A stretch of 64,000 nucleotides of DNA from contig JAWCKR010000004.1 in the NCBI GenBank assembly GCA_038851755.1, positions 1-64,000 on the forward strand. Reading direction: 5' to 3'. Of the stretch, positions 6,959-51,418 are shown piece by piece. Numbering within the stretch: position 1 is the stretch's first letter; the number at the start of each line of letters is the position of its first letter. The notes beneath the pieces are model-generated. The model saw only the letters and a program-made list of their open reading frames with translations. It did no database searches and was not told where the DNA came from. The stretch comes from Candidatus Hadarchaeales archaeon (GTDB taxonomy: Archaea > Hadarchaeota > Hadarchaeia > Hadarchaeales > WYZ-LMO6). The position numbers and the translations under genes are program-made.

Positions 6959-7474
6959 ATGGACGTATACTCTGCCATAAGGGAGCGCAGGAGCGTGAGG
7001 GCCTACCGTCCCGATCCCGTCCCGGAGGAGGCCCTGAGGAGGATGCTGGAGGCGGCCAGACTGGCCCCCTCCGCCAAGAACCTGCAGCCCTGGAAGCTGG
7101 TGGTGGTGAGGGACCCGGAGCGCAGGAAGAAGCTGGCGGAGGCCGCCCACGGGCAGAGCTTCGTGGCGGAGGCTCCGGTGGTGATCGCGGCCGTGGCCCT
7201 GGACCCCGAGAGGGTGATGAGGTGCGGAGTCCCCTCCTACGCCGTGGACGTGGCCATCGTGGTGGACCACCTCACCCTGGCGGCCGTGCAGGAGGGCCTG
7301 GGGACGTGCTGGATCGGGTCCTTCTCCCAGGAGGAGGCCAGGAAGGTCCTGGGAGTGCCGGAGAAGTACATGGTGGTGGCCCTCCTCCCCGTGGGCTACC
7401 CGGCCGACGAGCCTCTGCCCAAGTGGAGGAAGGAACTGGACGAGCTCGTCTGTCACGAGGTCTTCAGGGAGTAG
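6959..7474 (+). CDS. Nitroreductase family protein
   Basis: RRSVRAY, APSAKNLQPW, GLGTCWIG. Confidence 0.93.
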   Translation: MDVYSAIRERRSVRAYRPDPVPEEALRRMLEAARLAPSAKNLQPWKLVVVRDPERRKKLAEAAHGQSFVAEAPVVIAAVALDPERVMRCGVPSYAVDVAIVVDHLTLAAVQEGLGTCWIGSFSQEEARKVLGVPEKYMVVALLPVGYPADEPLPKWRKELDELVCHEVFRE

Positions 7475-8234
7475 CGCGCCTGGTTCTTCCGACGGGGCAG
7501 GCCTTCACGCATTCGAAGCAGTGGTAAAAGGTGCCCAGCGTGGTGGTCTGCCAGAGGTTCAGGAAGACCGGGTCAAAGGTGAGCTGGCTTCTCTCCTCGG
7601 CCCCCTTGCCCGCCAGCTCGGAGAGGAAGGCCGCCGCCCCCGGGGGACCGTACCTCAGGAGGTTGATGGCGCACCTGAACACGTCCACCTTCCTCCCCTC
7701 CTCCACGGCGCCCACGGGACAGGCCTTCATGCACCTCCCGCACCTCCTGCAGATACCTTCCACCCTCTTCCCCTCTGACCGCAGGGGGGCCTCCGTCAGG
7801 ACGCCCCCTATCCTGACCCTGGGCCCGAACCTATCCGTCACCAGCAGCCGGCTCAGGCCCAGCTCCCCGAGCCCCGCCGCCACGGCCGCGTGACGCAGAG
7901 AGAACTCCCCCCTCAGGCCGAACTTTCCCTCCCCCATATCCAGCGGGAGGGCCAGGGGCACGGAGAGGGAGGGAAAGCCCCGATCCTCTAGGAGGCGAAC
8001 GAGCTCTCTCCCTATCAGCCCCAGCTTCTGGTAGGTGCAGTAGGTGTCATACTGGGCCATCCTGACGTTGCTGGAGAGGGCCCCCTCAGCCTGTCCGCAG
8101 AGGAAGACCACGCAGGAGGAGGCGCTGGGCAGGAGAGTGGGCTCGTAGCCCTCCACCTCCTTCACCGAGCATATCCCCACGAGGTCAGCCCCAAGCCCCA
8201 GGGCGCGCTCCTTCACCTCCTCCTCCAGACCCAT
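7464..8234 (-). CDS. QueG / reductive-dehalogenase-like cobalamin and 2x[4Fe-4S] protein
   Basis: Start at ATG 8234 (MGLEEEVKERALGLGADLVG); SLRHAAVAAGLG, FGPRVR, CxxCxxCxxxCP and CxxCxxxCP. Confidence 0.8.
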   Translation of the reverse strand: MGLEEEVKERALGLGADLVGICSVKEVEGYEPTLLPSASSCVVFLCGQAEGALSSNVRMAQYDTYCTYQKLGLIGRELVRLLEDRGFPSLSVPLALPLDMGEGKFGLRGEFSLRHAAVAAGLGELGLSRLLVTDRFGPRVRIGGVLTEAPLRSEGKRVEGICRRCGRCMKACPVGAVEEGRKVDVFRCAINLLRYGPPGAAAFLSELAGKGAEERSQLTFDPVFLNLWQTTTLGTFYHCFECVKACPVGRTRRATP

Positions 8235-8300
8235 CGGACACGCTGGGGGGATGAAAGATTTAATTTTTATTCGGCACGCTCGAGTGCTGCGGGTGGGGAG

Positions 8301-8663
8301 ATGGCGCTGGAGGAGATCTGGGCGAAGATTCCCTCGATGGAGTGCGAGGAGGGGTGCAACGAGTGCTGCCTGTGGCCCAGCCGGACTCCCCTGGAGGAGG
8401 AGAGGCTGCGCAGGTGGCTGAGGGAGAGGGGAAGGGAGGAGAGGGTGGGAAAGGCTGGGGAGAGATGTCCTTACGCGGAGGAGGGGAGGTGCTCCATCTG
8501 GCCCGTGCGCTTCCTCCCGTGCAGGCTCTTCGGGGTGGTGGAGACGGTGAAGTGCCCGAAGGGGAGGGGGCCCGCGAGGTTCCTCACCGAGGAGGAGGCC
8601 GTGGCCCTCATCCTGGAGCTGGACGAGGAGAACCGGCGCTTCCTGCAGAGCAAAAGGGTTTAA
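8301..8663 (+). CDS. YkgJ-family cysteine cluster protein (CxxCxxCC type)
   Basis: CEEGCNECC...CPY..GRCSIW.VR..PCRLF. Confidence 0.8.
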   Translation: MALEEIWAKIPSMECEEGCNECCLWPSRTPLEEERLRRWLRERGREERVGKAGERCPYAEEGRCSIWPVRFLPCRLFGVVETVKCPKGRGPARFLTEEEAVALILELDEENRRFLQSKRV

Positions 8664-8690
8664 CCGGAGTGGAAGAGGGTGGGGGAGAGG

Positions 8691-9980
8691 ATGGCCCCCG
8701 CGTGGAGGGAAGTGGCCCTGCTCGGCCCTGAGGGAACGCACACGGAGAGGGCCCTGGAGGCCCTGGAGGACCTGCTGCCCAGGAGAGCCCGCAGGAGGTA
8801 TCTCTCCCCCGTGGCCGAGGTCTTCGAGTACGTCTCCACCCATCCGGAGGCGCTTGGGGTGGTGCCCGTGGAGGACTCGGTGGAGGGGGAGGTACCCTTC
8901 GTGCTGGACCTCCTCCGCAGGTACCACGGGCTCAGGGTGGTGAGGGAGATCAGGATGCCGGTGGTCCACCATTTGCTGGCCAGACAGGAGGACCTGAGGA
9001 GGGTGAAGGTGGTGGCCTCCCACCACCAGGCCCTTTCCCACTGCAGGAGGTACCTGAGGGAGAACCTCCCGCACGCGGAGCTCAGGGAGATGCCGAGCAC
9101 TGCCGCCGCCGCTGAGCTTGCGGCTTCGGACCCCTCCGTGGCGGCCGTGGCGGGGGAGAGGGCGGCCAGGATCTACGGGCTGAAGGTGGTGAGGAGGAAC
9201 ATCCATGACCAGGGCCTGAGCTTCACCAGGTTCTTCGTCCTCAGCCAGAGGCCCCTCCCGGGCATCAAGCCCGTGAAGACCTCCGTGCTGCTGGAGCTGG
9301 CGGAGGACAGGCCCGGCATCCTGCAGGAGATCCTGGGGGAGTTCTCCTCCAGGGGGATCAACCTCACCAGGATAGAGTCGCGGCCGGACAGGGGTGTGCT
9401 GGGGGAGTACGTGTTCTTCGTGGACTTCCAGGGGAGGGCGGGGGAGAGGAGGGTGGAGGAGGCGCTGAAGGCGATAGAGGGGAAGAGGGTGCACGTGAGG
9501 TTGCTGGGCTCCTACGACATGAGGGAGGTGGAGGGTGAGAGGGTGAGCAGACCCCCCCTGCTGGAAAGGGGGGAGGGGGAGCTGGCCGAGTCCAGGCTGG
9601 CGGAGGAGAAGGCTTTCATAAGGGGGGAGGAGAGGAGGGTGATGGCCGGGAACCAGATCAGGCAGGGGGAGCTGGTGAGGGTGAGGACGCCCTCGGGGGA
9701 GAGGCTGGCCCTGGTGGTCTCCTCCGACAGGTACAACAGGCTGGGGAAAGAGGTGGTGGTGGTCCCGGTGGTGGAGGGGAAGGGAGGAGGTGAGCTGGAC
9801 CACGAGCTCTCCGGGAAGGATTTGAAGTTCGCGGGGCTCAAGGGACCCAGAACGGTGAGGATGGGCGTTCTCCTCACGGTGGAGAAGGGGAAGGTGGAGA
9901 GGGAGGGCAAGCTTCCCTCCACCACGGTGAGGGAGATCCTCTCGGGTCTGCAGGCCAGGGTCCTCTCCTCCGACCTGTGA
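8691..9980 (+). CDS. pheA: Prephenate dehydratase (PDT+ACT) fused to a C-terminal MazF/PemK-like domain
   Basis: LGPEGTHTE, PVEDSVEG, SHHQALSHC, TRF, NLTRIESRP, LLGSY; then about 150 extra aa including IRQGELVRV..RLALVVSSDRYN..VVVVP. Confidence 0.88.
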   Translation: MAPAWREVALLGPEGTHTERALEALEDLLPRRARRRYLSPVAEVFEYVSTHPEALGVVPVEDSVEGEVPFVLDLLRRYHGLRVVREIRMPVVHHLLARQEDLRRVKVVASHHQALSHCRRYLRENLPHAELREMPSTAAAAELAASDPSVAAVAGERAARIYGLKVVRRNIHDQGLSFTRFFVLSQRPLPGIKPVKTSVLLELAEDRPGILQEILGEFSSRGINLTRIESRPDRGVLGEYVFFVDFQGRAGERRVEEALKAIEGKRVHVRLLGSYDMREVEGERVSRPPLLERGEGELAESRLAEEKAFIRGEERRVMAGNQIRQGELVRVRTPSGERLALVVSSDRYNRLGKEVVVVPVVEGKGGGELDHELSGKDLKFAGLKGPRTVRMGVLLTVEKGKVEREGKLPSTTVREILSGLQARVLSSDL

Positions 9981-10011
9981 GGAATAAAGGCACTCCCTTC
10001 CATTCTCTCTG

Positions 10012-10797
10012 ATGTCCGAGCTGGAGGTGGCCGTCTCCCTCGCCCTGGAGGCGGGGGAGGTCCTGAGGGAGGGCTTCAGGAAGGGCGGGTTCCTGGGGAT
10101 GCGCGGGACGGCGAAGGGCCTGACCACCCCCTACGACCTGAAGTCGGACAAGCTGCTGGTGGAGGGGCTCTCCTCCAGGTACCCCGGGCACAACCTGCTG
10201 ACGGAGGAAACGGGCCTGGTGGAAAGGGGGTCGGAGTTCACCTGGGTGGTGGACCCGCTGGACGGTACCACCAACTTCGCCTCCGGCAACCCCCTCTTCT
10301 GCGTCACCCTGGCCCTCCTCAGGAGGGGGGAGCCGCTCCTGGGGGTGACCTTCCTCCCCGTGCTCGGGGAGCTCTTCCTGGCGGAGAGGGGGAAGGGTGC
10401 CTTCCTGGAGAGGACGGACACCGGGGAGAGGGTCCCCATCCGCGTCTCCGAGGTGGAGGAGCTGAGCAGGGCCTACATGTATTCATGCGAGGGGAGCGAG
10501 ACGAACAGGGAGAGGACGGGCAGGATCGTGGGCACCCTCTACCCGAGGGTGAGGGACCTCAGGAAGCTGGGCTCGGCCGGGGTGGAAGCGGCCTGGGTGG
10601 CCTGCGGGAGGGGGGACGCCTACGCCGCCACCGCCCTCCAGCCCTGGGACGTGGCGGCCTCCGTCCTCCTGGTGGAGGAGGCGGGAGGGAGGGTGACGGA
10701 CTTCGGGGGGAGGGAGTGGAGGCCGGAGAGGATGGACCTGCTCTTCTCCAACGGAAGGCTGCACGGGAAGCTCGTGGGGCTGCTGGCGGGCCTCTGA
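10012..10797 (+). CDS. Inositol monophosphatase family protein
   Basis: TEE, WVVDPLDGTTNF, PWDVAA. Confidence 0.92.
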   Translation: MSELEVAVSLALEAGEVLREGFRKGGFLGMRGTAKGLTTPYDLKSDKLLVEGLSSRYPGHNLLTEETGLVERGSEFTWVVDPLDGTTNFASGNPLFCVTLALLRRGEPLLGVTFLPVLGELFLAERGKGAFLERTDTGERVPIRVSEVEELSRAYMYSCEGSETNRERTGRIVGTLYPRVRDLRKLGSAGVEAAWVACGRGDAYAATALQPWDVAASVLLVEEAGGRVTDFGGREWRPERMDLLFSNGRLHGKLVGLLAGL

Positions 10798-51327: not shown

Positions 51328-51418
51328 CCCGCGGTAGCTCAGCCTGGTTAGAGCGGCCGGCTGTAGACCCAGGGCCGTTACCGGCATGTCGGGAGTTCAA
51401 ATCTCCCCCGCGGGACCA
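51328..51418 (+). tRNA. tRNA-Tyr(GTA) with a 13-nt intron at 37/38 (51367-51379); CCA encoded
   Basis: Acceptor stem CCCGCGG/CCGCGGG (C1:G72, A73), anticodon stem GCCGG/CCGGC, T-arm GGGAG-TTCAAAT-CTCCC. Confidence 0.93.

Follow-up and report, generated by a model that had tools for sequence, protein, structure and literature searches.

A prephenate dehydratase fused to a MazF-fold domain in a hot-spring archaeon, and its plausible descent from a toxin–antitoxin module

The DNA considered here is a stretch of 64,000 nucleotides from the hot-spring archaeon Candidatus Hadarchaeales archaeon (positions 1-64,000 of contig JAWCKR010000004.1, assembly GCA_038851755.1), referred to below as the window. 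At 8691..9980 of the + strand, ORF reading together with Pfam and NCBIfam identified a single gene for a prephenate dehydratase (PDT) with its ACT regulatory domain (PheA*), a linker and a MazF-like domain, bearing out a preliminary description of the letters alone that had proposed a PDT-ACT unit, a charged linker of ~40 residues and a domain of 112 residues. The ORF comprises 429 amino acids from ATG 8691 and 433 from GTG 8679; homologues begin near the ATG, and residue numbers follow the 433-residue reading. The PDT domain, residues 12-191 (8712..9251, +; PF00800, E 1.1e-47), covers positions 1-179 of the 181 of the Pfam model, a full-length family match, with 3mwb as the nearest solved structure (E 8e-41), and is followed by the ACT domain, residues 207-267 (9297..9479, +; PF01842, E 9.7e-15). 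Both are complete, as in PDT-ACT enzymes such as that of 3mwb, and the fused protein scores 261 bits against the NCBIfam prephenate dehydratase equivalog NF008865 (cut-off 219). The sequences TRF (183-185) and ESRP (233-236), which we take to be functional PDT-ACT motifs, are invariant across the fused set. The gene is the sole PDT match detected in the source genome (93%-complete), which encodes chorismate mutase in a separate gene elsewhere, and these two features are indirect pointers to a predicted prephenate dehydratase activity with phenylalanine feedback inhibition. In P-protein-type fusions the chorismate mutase is found at the N-terminus, and its family PF01817 occurs in many of the 120 listed PheA relatives; on the other hand, PemK domains and C-terminal extensions are absent from all of these 120 outside the clade of the window. 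A full-length AlphaFold2 model built on a 5-row alignment (mean pLDDT 41.5) was unusable.

The upstream neighbour, at 8301..8663 (+), encodes a CxxCxxCC-domain protein and is syntenic within the genus, while the downstream neighbour, at 10012..10797 (+), belongs to the inositol monophosphatase family and is syntenic in every fused locus that reaches that far. An adjacent antitoxin gene had been reported missing from the locus; the upstream gene is indeed no antitoxin, and a profile of canonical antitoxin C-termini, run against the 19,816 six-frame ORFs of the genome, gave a best E of 0.92 and did not return the window linker. A promoter and terminator scan of 8200-10200 yielded 0 sites, its consensus being of the bacterial type and unsuited to archaea.

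The special feature of this protein is its C-terminal part, residues 322-433 (9642..9977, +), for which Pfam, an AlphaFold2 model and Foldseek agree with the earlier assignment to the MazF/PemK family. The PemK_toxin family (PF02452) matches residues 338-425 at 34.1 bits when the whole protein is searched and at 38 bits when the query is reduced to the last 112 residues, against a cut-off of 23.1. The model of residues 280-433, computed from a 70-row alignment, has a mean pLDDT of 89.9 with block means of 96-98 across most of the domain, and its top Foldseek matches in the PDB are all MazF, YdcE, MoxT or Kid (probability 1.00, target TM 0.73-0.82, rmsd about 2 Å). The domain shares with the MazF/PemK/Kid toxins (YdcE/MazF 1ne8 and 4mdx, MazF-mt1 6kys) their fold, an SSDRYN-type core motif and the catalytic arginine; of the 6 family columns that hardly vary it retains 5, and its nearest free-standing relatives are ordinary toxins of 110-125 residues. 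In contrast to these toxins, it forms the C-terminal part of a biosynthetic enzyme and comes without an antitoxin gene, and its nuclease activity and toxicity are putative. Its stretch between strand 1 and strand 2 is 7 residues shorter than in the relative G061 described below. PADLOC assigned no defence-system family to the fused protein or to the MazF-like proteins, and a search of the ESM Atlas gave no usable match; a word-based search with the 112-residue domain at near lengths gave 18 candidates, none of them scored, and a profile search took its place.

The residues at the presumed catalytic site have changed. The canonical Arg-Pro pair corresponds to Arg342-Leu343 (9702..9707, +), with the arginine kept and the proline lost, and the canonical Thr/Ser-Ser pair to Val365-Glu366 (9771..9776, +), with loss of the catalytic threonine. 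The preliminary description had likewise read the arginine of the RP motif as kept and the threonine of 'PIT' as valine, and the alignment of the signature columns agrees. In a comparison set of 65 rows (64 canonical relatives plus the protein P0006), the K-x-R-P / [TS]-S signature is present in 62/65, 63/65, 63/65, 63/65 and 55/65 rows for the columns K, R, P, T/S and S, respectively. The same five columns read GGGENK, RRRKLP, LLLLAA, VVVARI and EEESCS in the 6 rows of the PheA-linked clade, where the signature is degraded in 6/6. Pro → Leu and Thr/Ser-Ser → Val-Glu are found in every fused form; Arg342 is invariant among them, whereas in the sister split forms the catalytic arginine is replaced by lysine (G061) or leucine (G031). 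The corresponding catalytic residues are Arg25 and Thr48 in MazF from B. subtilis and Arg29 and Thr52 in MazF-sth; according to PMC10893535, the R29A and T52A mutants of the latter lose most of their activity, that of T52A being reduced, not abolished. Given the loss of the canonical proline and of the Thr-Ser pair, the domain most likely has little or no nuclease activity left, and since the arginine is retained in all fused forms, some residual nuclease activity is conceivable. The dN/dS ratio within the genus is 0.15-0.28 for the MazF-fold domain, 0.06-0.18 for PDT plus ACT and 0.44-1.40 for the linker. The value for the MazF-fold domain indicates purifying selection, which shows that the domain still does something. 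Of the two options offered earlier, a domesticated toxin fold or an RNA-directed module coupled to phenylalanine sensing, the degraded signatures together with this constraint favour the first.

A survey of the phylum placed the MazF-like domain in 6/66 genomes, where it is always either part of pheA or its neighbour. Three congeneric species share the fused frame (G063, G065 and G064, in the last cut by the contig end), and clustering of proteins at 90% identity gave four groups with the architecture PF00800+PF01842+PF02452 and lengths of 426-433 residues, one being the window's own, such that the search for the same architecture in related genomes, proposed at the outset, turned out positive. 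A weak extra profile match in G064 (E 0.008, with an internal TGA) was set aside. In the more distant relatives G061 and G031 there are two genes, namely a PheA with a tail of 34 residues followed by a MazF-like gene, so that PheA* takes the position of the antitoxin in a type II toxin–antitoxin operon, whereas the window holds a single ORF. Relatives with two separate genes had been named beforehand as evidence against a true fusion, and they do exist; the fusion stands nevertheless, as the MazF tree nests the fused forms within the split ones, and this nesting lets the split forms be read as the older state and not as a sign of faulty sequencing. The tailed PheA* protein P0156 and the MazF-like P0008 probably represent another two-gene form, their adjacency being deduced only from a common source and equal contigs of 5204 nt. 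A scan of viral contigs with P0008 returned nothing.

The PheA* lineage is a clade with support of 100/100, separated by a long branch from the other 24 PheAs of Hadarchaeota. The PheA and MazF trees are congruent, and so are identity matrices computed for either part, which speaks for inheritance of both parts together. Monophyly of the PheAs of genus g10 including that of G031 was rejected (p-AU 5.5e-7), while a control pair was not (p 0.127); an AU test with all of f3 as one clade was confounded, because rows of f2 and f4 nest in f3, and the genus test was used instead. In G031, the pheA*-mazF-like pair resides in an insert of 2.4 kb together with an HNH gene, adjoining the deleted native pheA.

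The linker of 42 residues (280-321; 9516..9641, +) starts directly after ...LLGSY (residue 279) and contains 12 acidic and 9 basic residues. Among the PheAs of Hadarchaeota parsed (L015 was left out of this count), such an extension is seen solely in MazF-linked enzymes: 24/24 unlinked PheAs stop 4 residues past GSY, while a 34-residue tail is present in 2/2 split forms and a linker of about 42 residues in 3/3 fused forms. Several canonical MazF relatives, in turn, are preceded by a short ORF of 61-92 residues ending in F-x-F-W-[DN]-x-x-[DE]-D-x-[IV]-Y. These ORFs match no antitoxin family of Pfam or NCBIfam, and we infer from their position that they are antitoxins. When tails were compared by Smith-Waterman scores against 2000 shuffles, the tail of P0156 matched the antitoxin C-termini of canonical relatives with z 10.1 and 11.6 (0/2000 shuffles); it bears the antitoxin C-terminal motif, with about 34 residues aligning with the C-terminal half of the upstream ORFs. 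From there, a chain leads to the tail of G061 (z 10.0 against P0156, 0/2000 shuffles), from the latter to the fused linker of P0004 (z 4.6, 2/2000 shuffles), and finally to the window linker, which aligns with that of P0004. Direct comparisons of the window linker were not significant, with z 0.3 against L054, 1.3 against P0156 and -0.7 against G061, and hhalign against the antitoxin motif gave P 0.72; the G031 tail resembled no other tail tested by Smith-Waterman. An antitoxin-tail profile run against the 120 listed PheAs returned P0156 only, at 9.2 bits, which is weak for so short a model.

In the AlphaFold2 model the linker forms a helix. A complex model of two copies of the domain with the linker reached a score of 0.69 (0.03, 0.69 and 0.76 in three runs; best of 3 controls 0.05); the mark applied to this score is reached by 116/157 solved complexes and by 2/215 mismatched pairs. 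At least 7% of contacts are common to the runs and the partner pLDDT is at least 39; one of the three runs failed, and resemblance to solved MazE-MazF structures may account for the score. Linker residues 291, 293-308 and 310-313 contact the domain dimer in this model, their modelled counterparts including Arg342, Pro363 and Val365-Gly370, such that the linker is predicted to lie across the dimer, over the groove of Arg342 and Val365. The idea that the linker is an antitoxin remnant, labelled speculative when it was put forward, has thus gained the canonical motif in the P0156 tail and the modelled placement over the groove, but no direct match of the window linker itself. Taken together, its position and the sequence comparisons suggest that the window linker is a remnant of an antitoxin C-terminal tail, tied to the motif only via intermediates. 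It occupies the same place as the tail of P0156, between PheA* and the MazF-like part; the arrangement differs from the canonical upstream antitoxins in that their N-terminal part is swapped for a whole PDT-ACT enzyme and in that the motif is statistically unrecognizable in the window. The near-neutral evolution of the linker would be odd for a specific binding peptide.

A natural single-chain toxin–antitoxin is reportedly known in the zeta-type EzeT. Such chains carry a toxin and a neutralizing segment on one polypeptide, and the covalent linkage of PheA*, linker and MazF-like domain is an observed feature of the window protein, inhibition in cis being predicted by the model and toxicity of the MazF-like part doubtful. 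It differs from them in that the chain includes a housekeeping enzyme, in its order (enzyme, neutralizer, toxin) and in its degraded signature. Inhibition in cis would be the expected default of such a chain; the natural example reviewed in PMC4826407 belongs to a toxin family other than MazF, and in PMC3281143 an engineered single chain of MazF and a MazE fragment, a 'zymoxin', is described as inert until its linker is cut. It can be asked, then, whether the window protein is a live toxin of this kind, a working endoribonuclease held off by the linker and released by proteolysis of this weakly constrained segment or by phenylalanine-dependent movement of the ACT domain, which would couple phenylalanine status to translation shutdown or RNA turnover. 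The invariant Arg342, the retained family columns, the purifying selection on the domain and the modelled position of the linker, which is that of the neutralizing segment in inhibited toxins, are all in keeping with this, as are the two precedents just cited. Yet the Val-Glu and Leu replacements are present in every fused form, the loss of the arginine in G061 and G031 suggests that constraint on catalysis has eased throughout the clade, a separate labile antitoxin is lacking, and the link between ACT domain and linker is hypothetical, so that a live toxin appears unlikely.

A different proposal concerns the in-frame ATG at 9642..9644 (+; Met322), which comes directly after GGAGGGTG, just as the preliminary description had it, and which is probably the relic start codon of a formerly separate mazF-like gene. 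If it still served as an internal start, a free MazF-like protein would be made and be neutralized or partnered in trans by the full-length protein or the linker, and the locus would act like the two-gene module of G061 and G031. Met322 is kept in 4/5 fused sequences, the start of the domain (M-A-G) resembles that of the separate G061 gene (M-A-R), and among the 6 in-frame ATGs ATG 9642 alone has a GGAGG within 15 nt. However, GGAGG occurs 27 times in the fused ORF (21 per kb), so its presence before ATG 9642 is unremarkable and the motif carries little weight; furthermore, the methionine of P0004 lies 3 residues further on. Two products from this gene are accordingly regarded as improbable.

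The reads had been singled out as the place to look for a lost stop codon. Coverage by contigs from 4 runs (2 studies) amounts to 28-30 of 30 bins, free of indels and joints, and one strain differs from the window by 11 substitutions, 9 of them synonymous, with the frame open. A stop codon lost by sequencing or assembly error, or a chance PemK match in a charged tail, could appeal to the separate genes in two relatives, but it is very improbable indeed, because the fused frame recurs in the three further species and four protein clusters, these contigs show no indels, and the Pfam score and the confidently modelled MazF fold leave little room for chance.

The account preferred here, which we hold to be somewhat probable, is that the window protein is a self-neutralized and probably catalytically weakened single-chain descendant of a toxin–antitoxin module, PheA having acquired the antitoxin tail by grafting. 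In a first step, the toxin-binding C-terminal tail of an antitoxin would have been attached to the C-terminus of PheA*, giving a two-gene module of pheA*-tail and mazF-like gene that would persist in G061 and G031, and probably in P0156/P0008. The module may then have spread horizontally, as the G031 insert with its HNH endonuclease gene beside the deleted native pheA would suggest. Finally, on the branch leading to the genus of the window and its sister cluster, the stop codon would have been lost and the genes fused. In the resulting protein the MazF-fold domain would be tethered for good to a neutralizing segment lying, in the model, across the dimer groove. The function retained may be the old protein-protein contact between toxin and antitoxin itself, and the MazF-type dimer with the linker, instead of being a free toxin, could clamp PheA* and thereby govern its assembly or allostery.

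Toxin–antitoxin modules are usually seen as self-contained units of two genes, in which the antitoxin consists of a DNA-binding domain and a tail, disordered, that binds the toxin. In the present case this tail seems to have moved onto a central enzyme of amino-acid biosynthesis, a hint that selfish toxin modules can be captured by housekeeping genes. The stages are visible in living lineages, from a canonical toxin paired with a tail of canonical appearance (P0156/P0008, presumed adjacent) via the degraded two-gene form (G061, G031) to the full fusion in the window's genus, and would make the locus a worked example of a selfish module captured and tamed. More tentatively, and with considerable doubt, the locus may stand for an undescribed toxin–antitoxin arrangement, in which a biosynthetic enzyme bears the neutralizing peptide in place of the DNA-binding domain: in the two-gene form the toxin would 'guard' a mobile pheA cassette that is hard to lose and displaces the resident pheA, and the fused form would be an ACT-adjacent single-chain switch through which phenylalanine metabolism is coupled to a module that targets (or binds) RNA. 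The G031 locus suggests that a guarded pheA cassette can displace the resident gene, a possible mechanism of xenologous gene displacement. The account also raises the question whether a MazF fold devoid of its catalytic signature can clamp an allosteric enzyme so as to assist its assembly or regulation; were the domain active instead, it would provide a direct link between phenylalanine sensing and RNA cleavage in archaea. The initial remark that no PheA-MazF fusion has been described holds for the literature searched, and the automatic JGI annotation labels members of the protein clusters as 'prephenate dehydratase/mRNA-degrading endonuclease toxin of MazEF toxin-antitoxin module'.

The fused gene is a single open reading frame on the forward strand, which starts at 8679 (GTG) or at 8691 (ATG, near where its homologues start) and ends at 9980; residues are numbered for the 433-residue version. 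Pfam assigns a PDT (prephenate dehydratase) domain to residues 12-191 (E 1.1e-47), an ACT domain to residues 207-267 (E 9.7e-15) and a PemK_toxin domain to residues 338-425 (34.1 bits, cut-off 23.1), the latter also found with the C-terminal 112 residues on their own (38 bits). The NCBIfam prephenate dehydratase equivalog is matched above its cut-off (261 versus 219 bits), and the nearest solved PDT is 3mwb (E 8e-41). The PheA part closes with LLGSY at residue 279, followed by a 42-residue linker (12 acidic and 9 basic residues) and by the MazF-like domain, which begins at Met 322. An AlphaFold2 model of residues 280-433, based on a 70-row alignment, has a mean pLDDT of 89.9, with block means of 96-98 across most of the domain, and the top Foldseek matches in the PDB are all MazF, YdcE, MoxT or Kid chains (probability 1.00, target TM 0.73-0.82). 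The preliminary description of a PDT-ACT protein fused to a domain of MazF/PemK fold was right in all checkable details. The PheA part, the sole PDT match in the window genome (1.25-Mb assembly, 93% complete), which also encodes chorismate mutase, is presumably the working enzyme.

The same three Pfam domains recur in four clusters at 90% identity (426-433 residues), one of them the window's own, in a region-restricted search. Within the phylum, the MazF-like domain was found in six of 66 genomes, also when the search was repeated with a profile: the window genome and three congeners, all fused (one gene being cut by a contig end), and two split relatives, G061 and G031. The domain was not detected in a fourth congener, whose assembly is 88% complete and split into 310 contigs. 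In the congeners the neighbouring genes are syntenic: the upstream one encodes a CxxCxxCC protein and the downstream one belongs to the inositol monophosphatase family. Contigs from four runs in two studies span 28-30 of 30 bins of 8600-10050 free of indels and joints, one of them bridging 9398-10050 with zero differences; in a second strain, nine of the 11 differences are synonymous and the frame stays open. A lost stop, for which the reads were to be checked, was not seen, and recurrence in congeners and clusters together with indel-free contigs from two studies contradicts a sequencing or assembly artefact.

In G061, from the same family but another genus, PheA (311 residues) ends 34 residues past GSY, and a separate gene for a 131-residue MazF-like protein follows after about 33 nt in a different frame. 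In G031, from another family, a 305-residue PheA with a 34-residue tail is overlapped by 7 nt by a gene for a 133-residue MazF-like protein; both MazF-like proteins score above the PemK_toxin cut-off. PheA is present in 61 of the 66 genomes, and its end was compared at 30 fetched loci, partial locus L015 being left unparsed. All 24 PheAs without a MazF-like neighbour stop exactly four residues past GSY, and the MazF-linked ones carry tails (two split forms) or linkers (three fused forms). Among the parsed loci, the extra segment is thus confined to MazF-linked PheAs, being present where the MazF-like part is present and absent where it is absent. As a side observation, the ESRP stretch of the ACT domain, kept in the fused forms and G061, reads LSRP in G031 and VSRP in P0156, the one further tailed PheA (316 residues, 50% identical) retrieved with the PheA part.

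A tree of 29 PheA rows, to be read with its long branches in mind, unites the MazF-linked PheAs (G031, G061 and three fused) as a clade (PheA*, support 100/100) on a long branch away from the other 24, among them those of G031's own congeners. A constraint that grouped G031 with its two congeners was rejected (delta lnL 67.9, p-AU 5.5e-7); the control, the congener pair alone, was not (p 0.127). For MazF, the tree (52 rows, with a single long row excluded) is congruent: (P0007,(P0008,((P0012,(G031,P0006)),(G061,(fused x4))))), with supports of 97/93, 98/76 and 85/52 at the key forks and 100/97 for G061 plus the fused forms. The fused forms are nested within it, and the fusion is thus a derived state. 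The G031 locus is collinear with that of its congener G032 save for a 2.4-kb insert (within L042 2029-4750) and a 578-nt deletion. The insert, located between tyrA and the broken native pheA, holds pheA*, the MazF-like gene and a gene for a 147-residue HNH endonuclease (Pfam 22.8 bits, cut-off 21.4; PADLOC ZorE-type HNH, E 1.3e-10), and is flanked by a diverged direct repeat (91 nt, 79% identical, spacing 2499). The native pheA lost its 578 nt internally, its last 50 codons being 92% identical to those of G032. By its appearance, the insert is a mobile cassette by which the resident pheA was displaced.

The MazF-like profile matched 302 of 1.84 billion representatives at E ≤ 0.001; among the best 150 of these, one is PheA-fused and the others are free-standing, grading into ordinary toxins of 110-125 residues. 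One protein of 967 residues, P0090, matches the profile in six separate stretches and may consist of MazF-like domains repeated in tandem. At ten of 21 loci of canonical relatives examined (L044, L050, L051, L054, L056, L060, L061, L063, L064 and L065, two being near-duplicates of others), an ORF of 61-92 residues lies just upstream of the toxin gene or overlaps it. These putative antitoxins vary at the N-terminus and end in a common F-x-F-W-[DN]-x-x-[DE]-D-x-[IV]-Y-type motif; since they match no family in Pfam or NCBIfam, the label is positional. One locus has a short upstream ORF of a different kind, six have none by the criteria used, two have an unparseable toxin frame and two only GC-rich frames upstream.

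The same type of end motif closes the tail of the PheA* protein P0156. In Smith-Waterman comparisons against 2000 shuffles, this tail scores z 11.6 and 10.1 with the putative antitoxins of L044 and L054 and z 10.0 with the G061 tail (0/2000 shuffles reaching the score in each case), the G061 tail scores z 4.6 with the linker of the fused protein P0004 (2/2000), and the latter is alignable with the window's linker. The probable partner of P0156 is the MazF-like protein P0008, whose signature is intact; each lies on a contig of 5,204 nt from the same source. The window's linker itself did not come up when 19,816 ORFs of the genome were searched with an antitoxin-motif profile, nor was it tied to the motif by hhalign (P 0.72) or by direct Smith-Waterman tests (z -0.7 to 1.3), and the G031 tail matched no other tail or antitoxin by Smith-Waterman. 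The earlier suggestion of an antitoxin remnant therefore rests on position and on this chain of intermediates, the direct tests having failed.

For B. subtilis MazF, passages of PMC10893535 name Arg25 and Thr48 as key residues, and report that a homologue lost most activity when mutated to R29A or to T52A. In the 70-row alignment, 65 comparison rows (64 canonical and P0006) keep the K column in 62 cases, R in 63, P in 63, T/S in 63 and S in 55. The PheA-linked clade (in order window, fused congener G064, P0274, G061, G031, P0006) reads G G G E N K, R R R K L P, L L L L A A, V V V A R I and E E E S C S in these columns. As initially noticed, the window's domain retains the RP-motif arginine (Arg342) and has valine for the usual threonine (Val365), with Leu343 at the P column and Glu366 at the S column; it lacks one defining feature of MazF, the Thr/Ser position. 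Within the genus, dN/dS is 0.15-0.28 for the domain, 0.06-0.18 for PDT plus ACT and 0.44-1.40 for the linker; against more distant fused forms it is 0.21-0.71 for the domain. The ratios within the genus indicate that the domain is under purifying selection there despite signature decay.

A complex model of two domain copies with the linker passed with a score of 0.69 (runs 0.03, 0.69 and 0.76; best of three controls 0.05), a pass that may only reflect likeness, because MazE-MazF complexes are already solved. The mark applied is reached by 116/157 solved complexes and 2/215 mismatched pairs; the runs had contact agreement of at least 7% and partner pLDDT of at least 39. Modelled linker residues 291, 293-308 and 310-313 contact both copies, Leu307 and Arg306 being placed against Arg342, Ala344, Pro363 and Val365-Gly370. 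With moderate confidence, we favour a single chain that would neutralise its own MazF-like part, whose nuclease would be weak or dead, the old toxin-antitoxin contact being kept for its value to the assembly or allostery of PheA*, on which it would act as a clamp. That the domain is instead a live RNase, releasable or controlled by Phe, is the main rival and appears unlikely; internal initiation at Met 322 is less likely still. The GGAGG upstream of it is weak evidence for such a start, given that the ORF contains 27 copies of this motif.

All parts of the protein have known counterparts, in PheA enzymes, in the MazF fold and in single-chain toxin-antitoxins, the last treated in PMC4826407 and PMC3281143. 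More interesting than these parts are the stages, which apparently begin with an antitoxin tail anchored on an enzyme and end with a fusion that has been tamed. A full-text literature search, judged at the level of search results, returned no description of the PheA-MazF architecture and only incidental co-mentions, in line with the first impression of novelty; automatic JGI annotation labels both halves.

Two further features of the window may be mentioned. An 887-residue open frame (7464-10127, reverse strand) runs antisense across the entire fused gene, with 4Fe-4S domain matches confined to its last ≈ 270 residues (7467-8276); the remainder is taken not as a gene but as a by-product of codon usage on the sense strand, which is GC-rich and purine-rich and so leaves the frame without stops. 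At 51328-51418 (forward strand), ARAGORN reports a 91-nt tRNA without type call and with a four-letter anticodon, 'gtag'; Rfam also identifies a tRNA there (55.8 bits), which may be an intron-bearing archaeal tRNA mis-parsed by ARAGORN.
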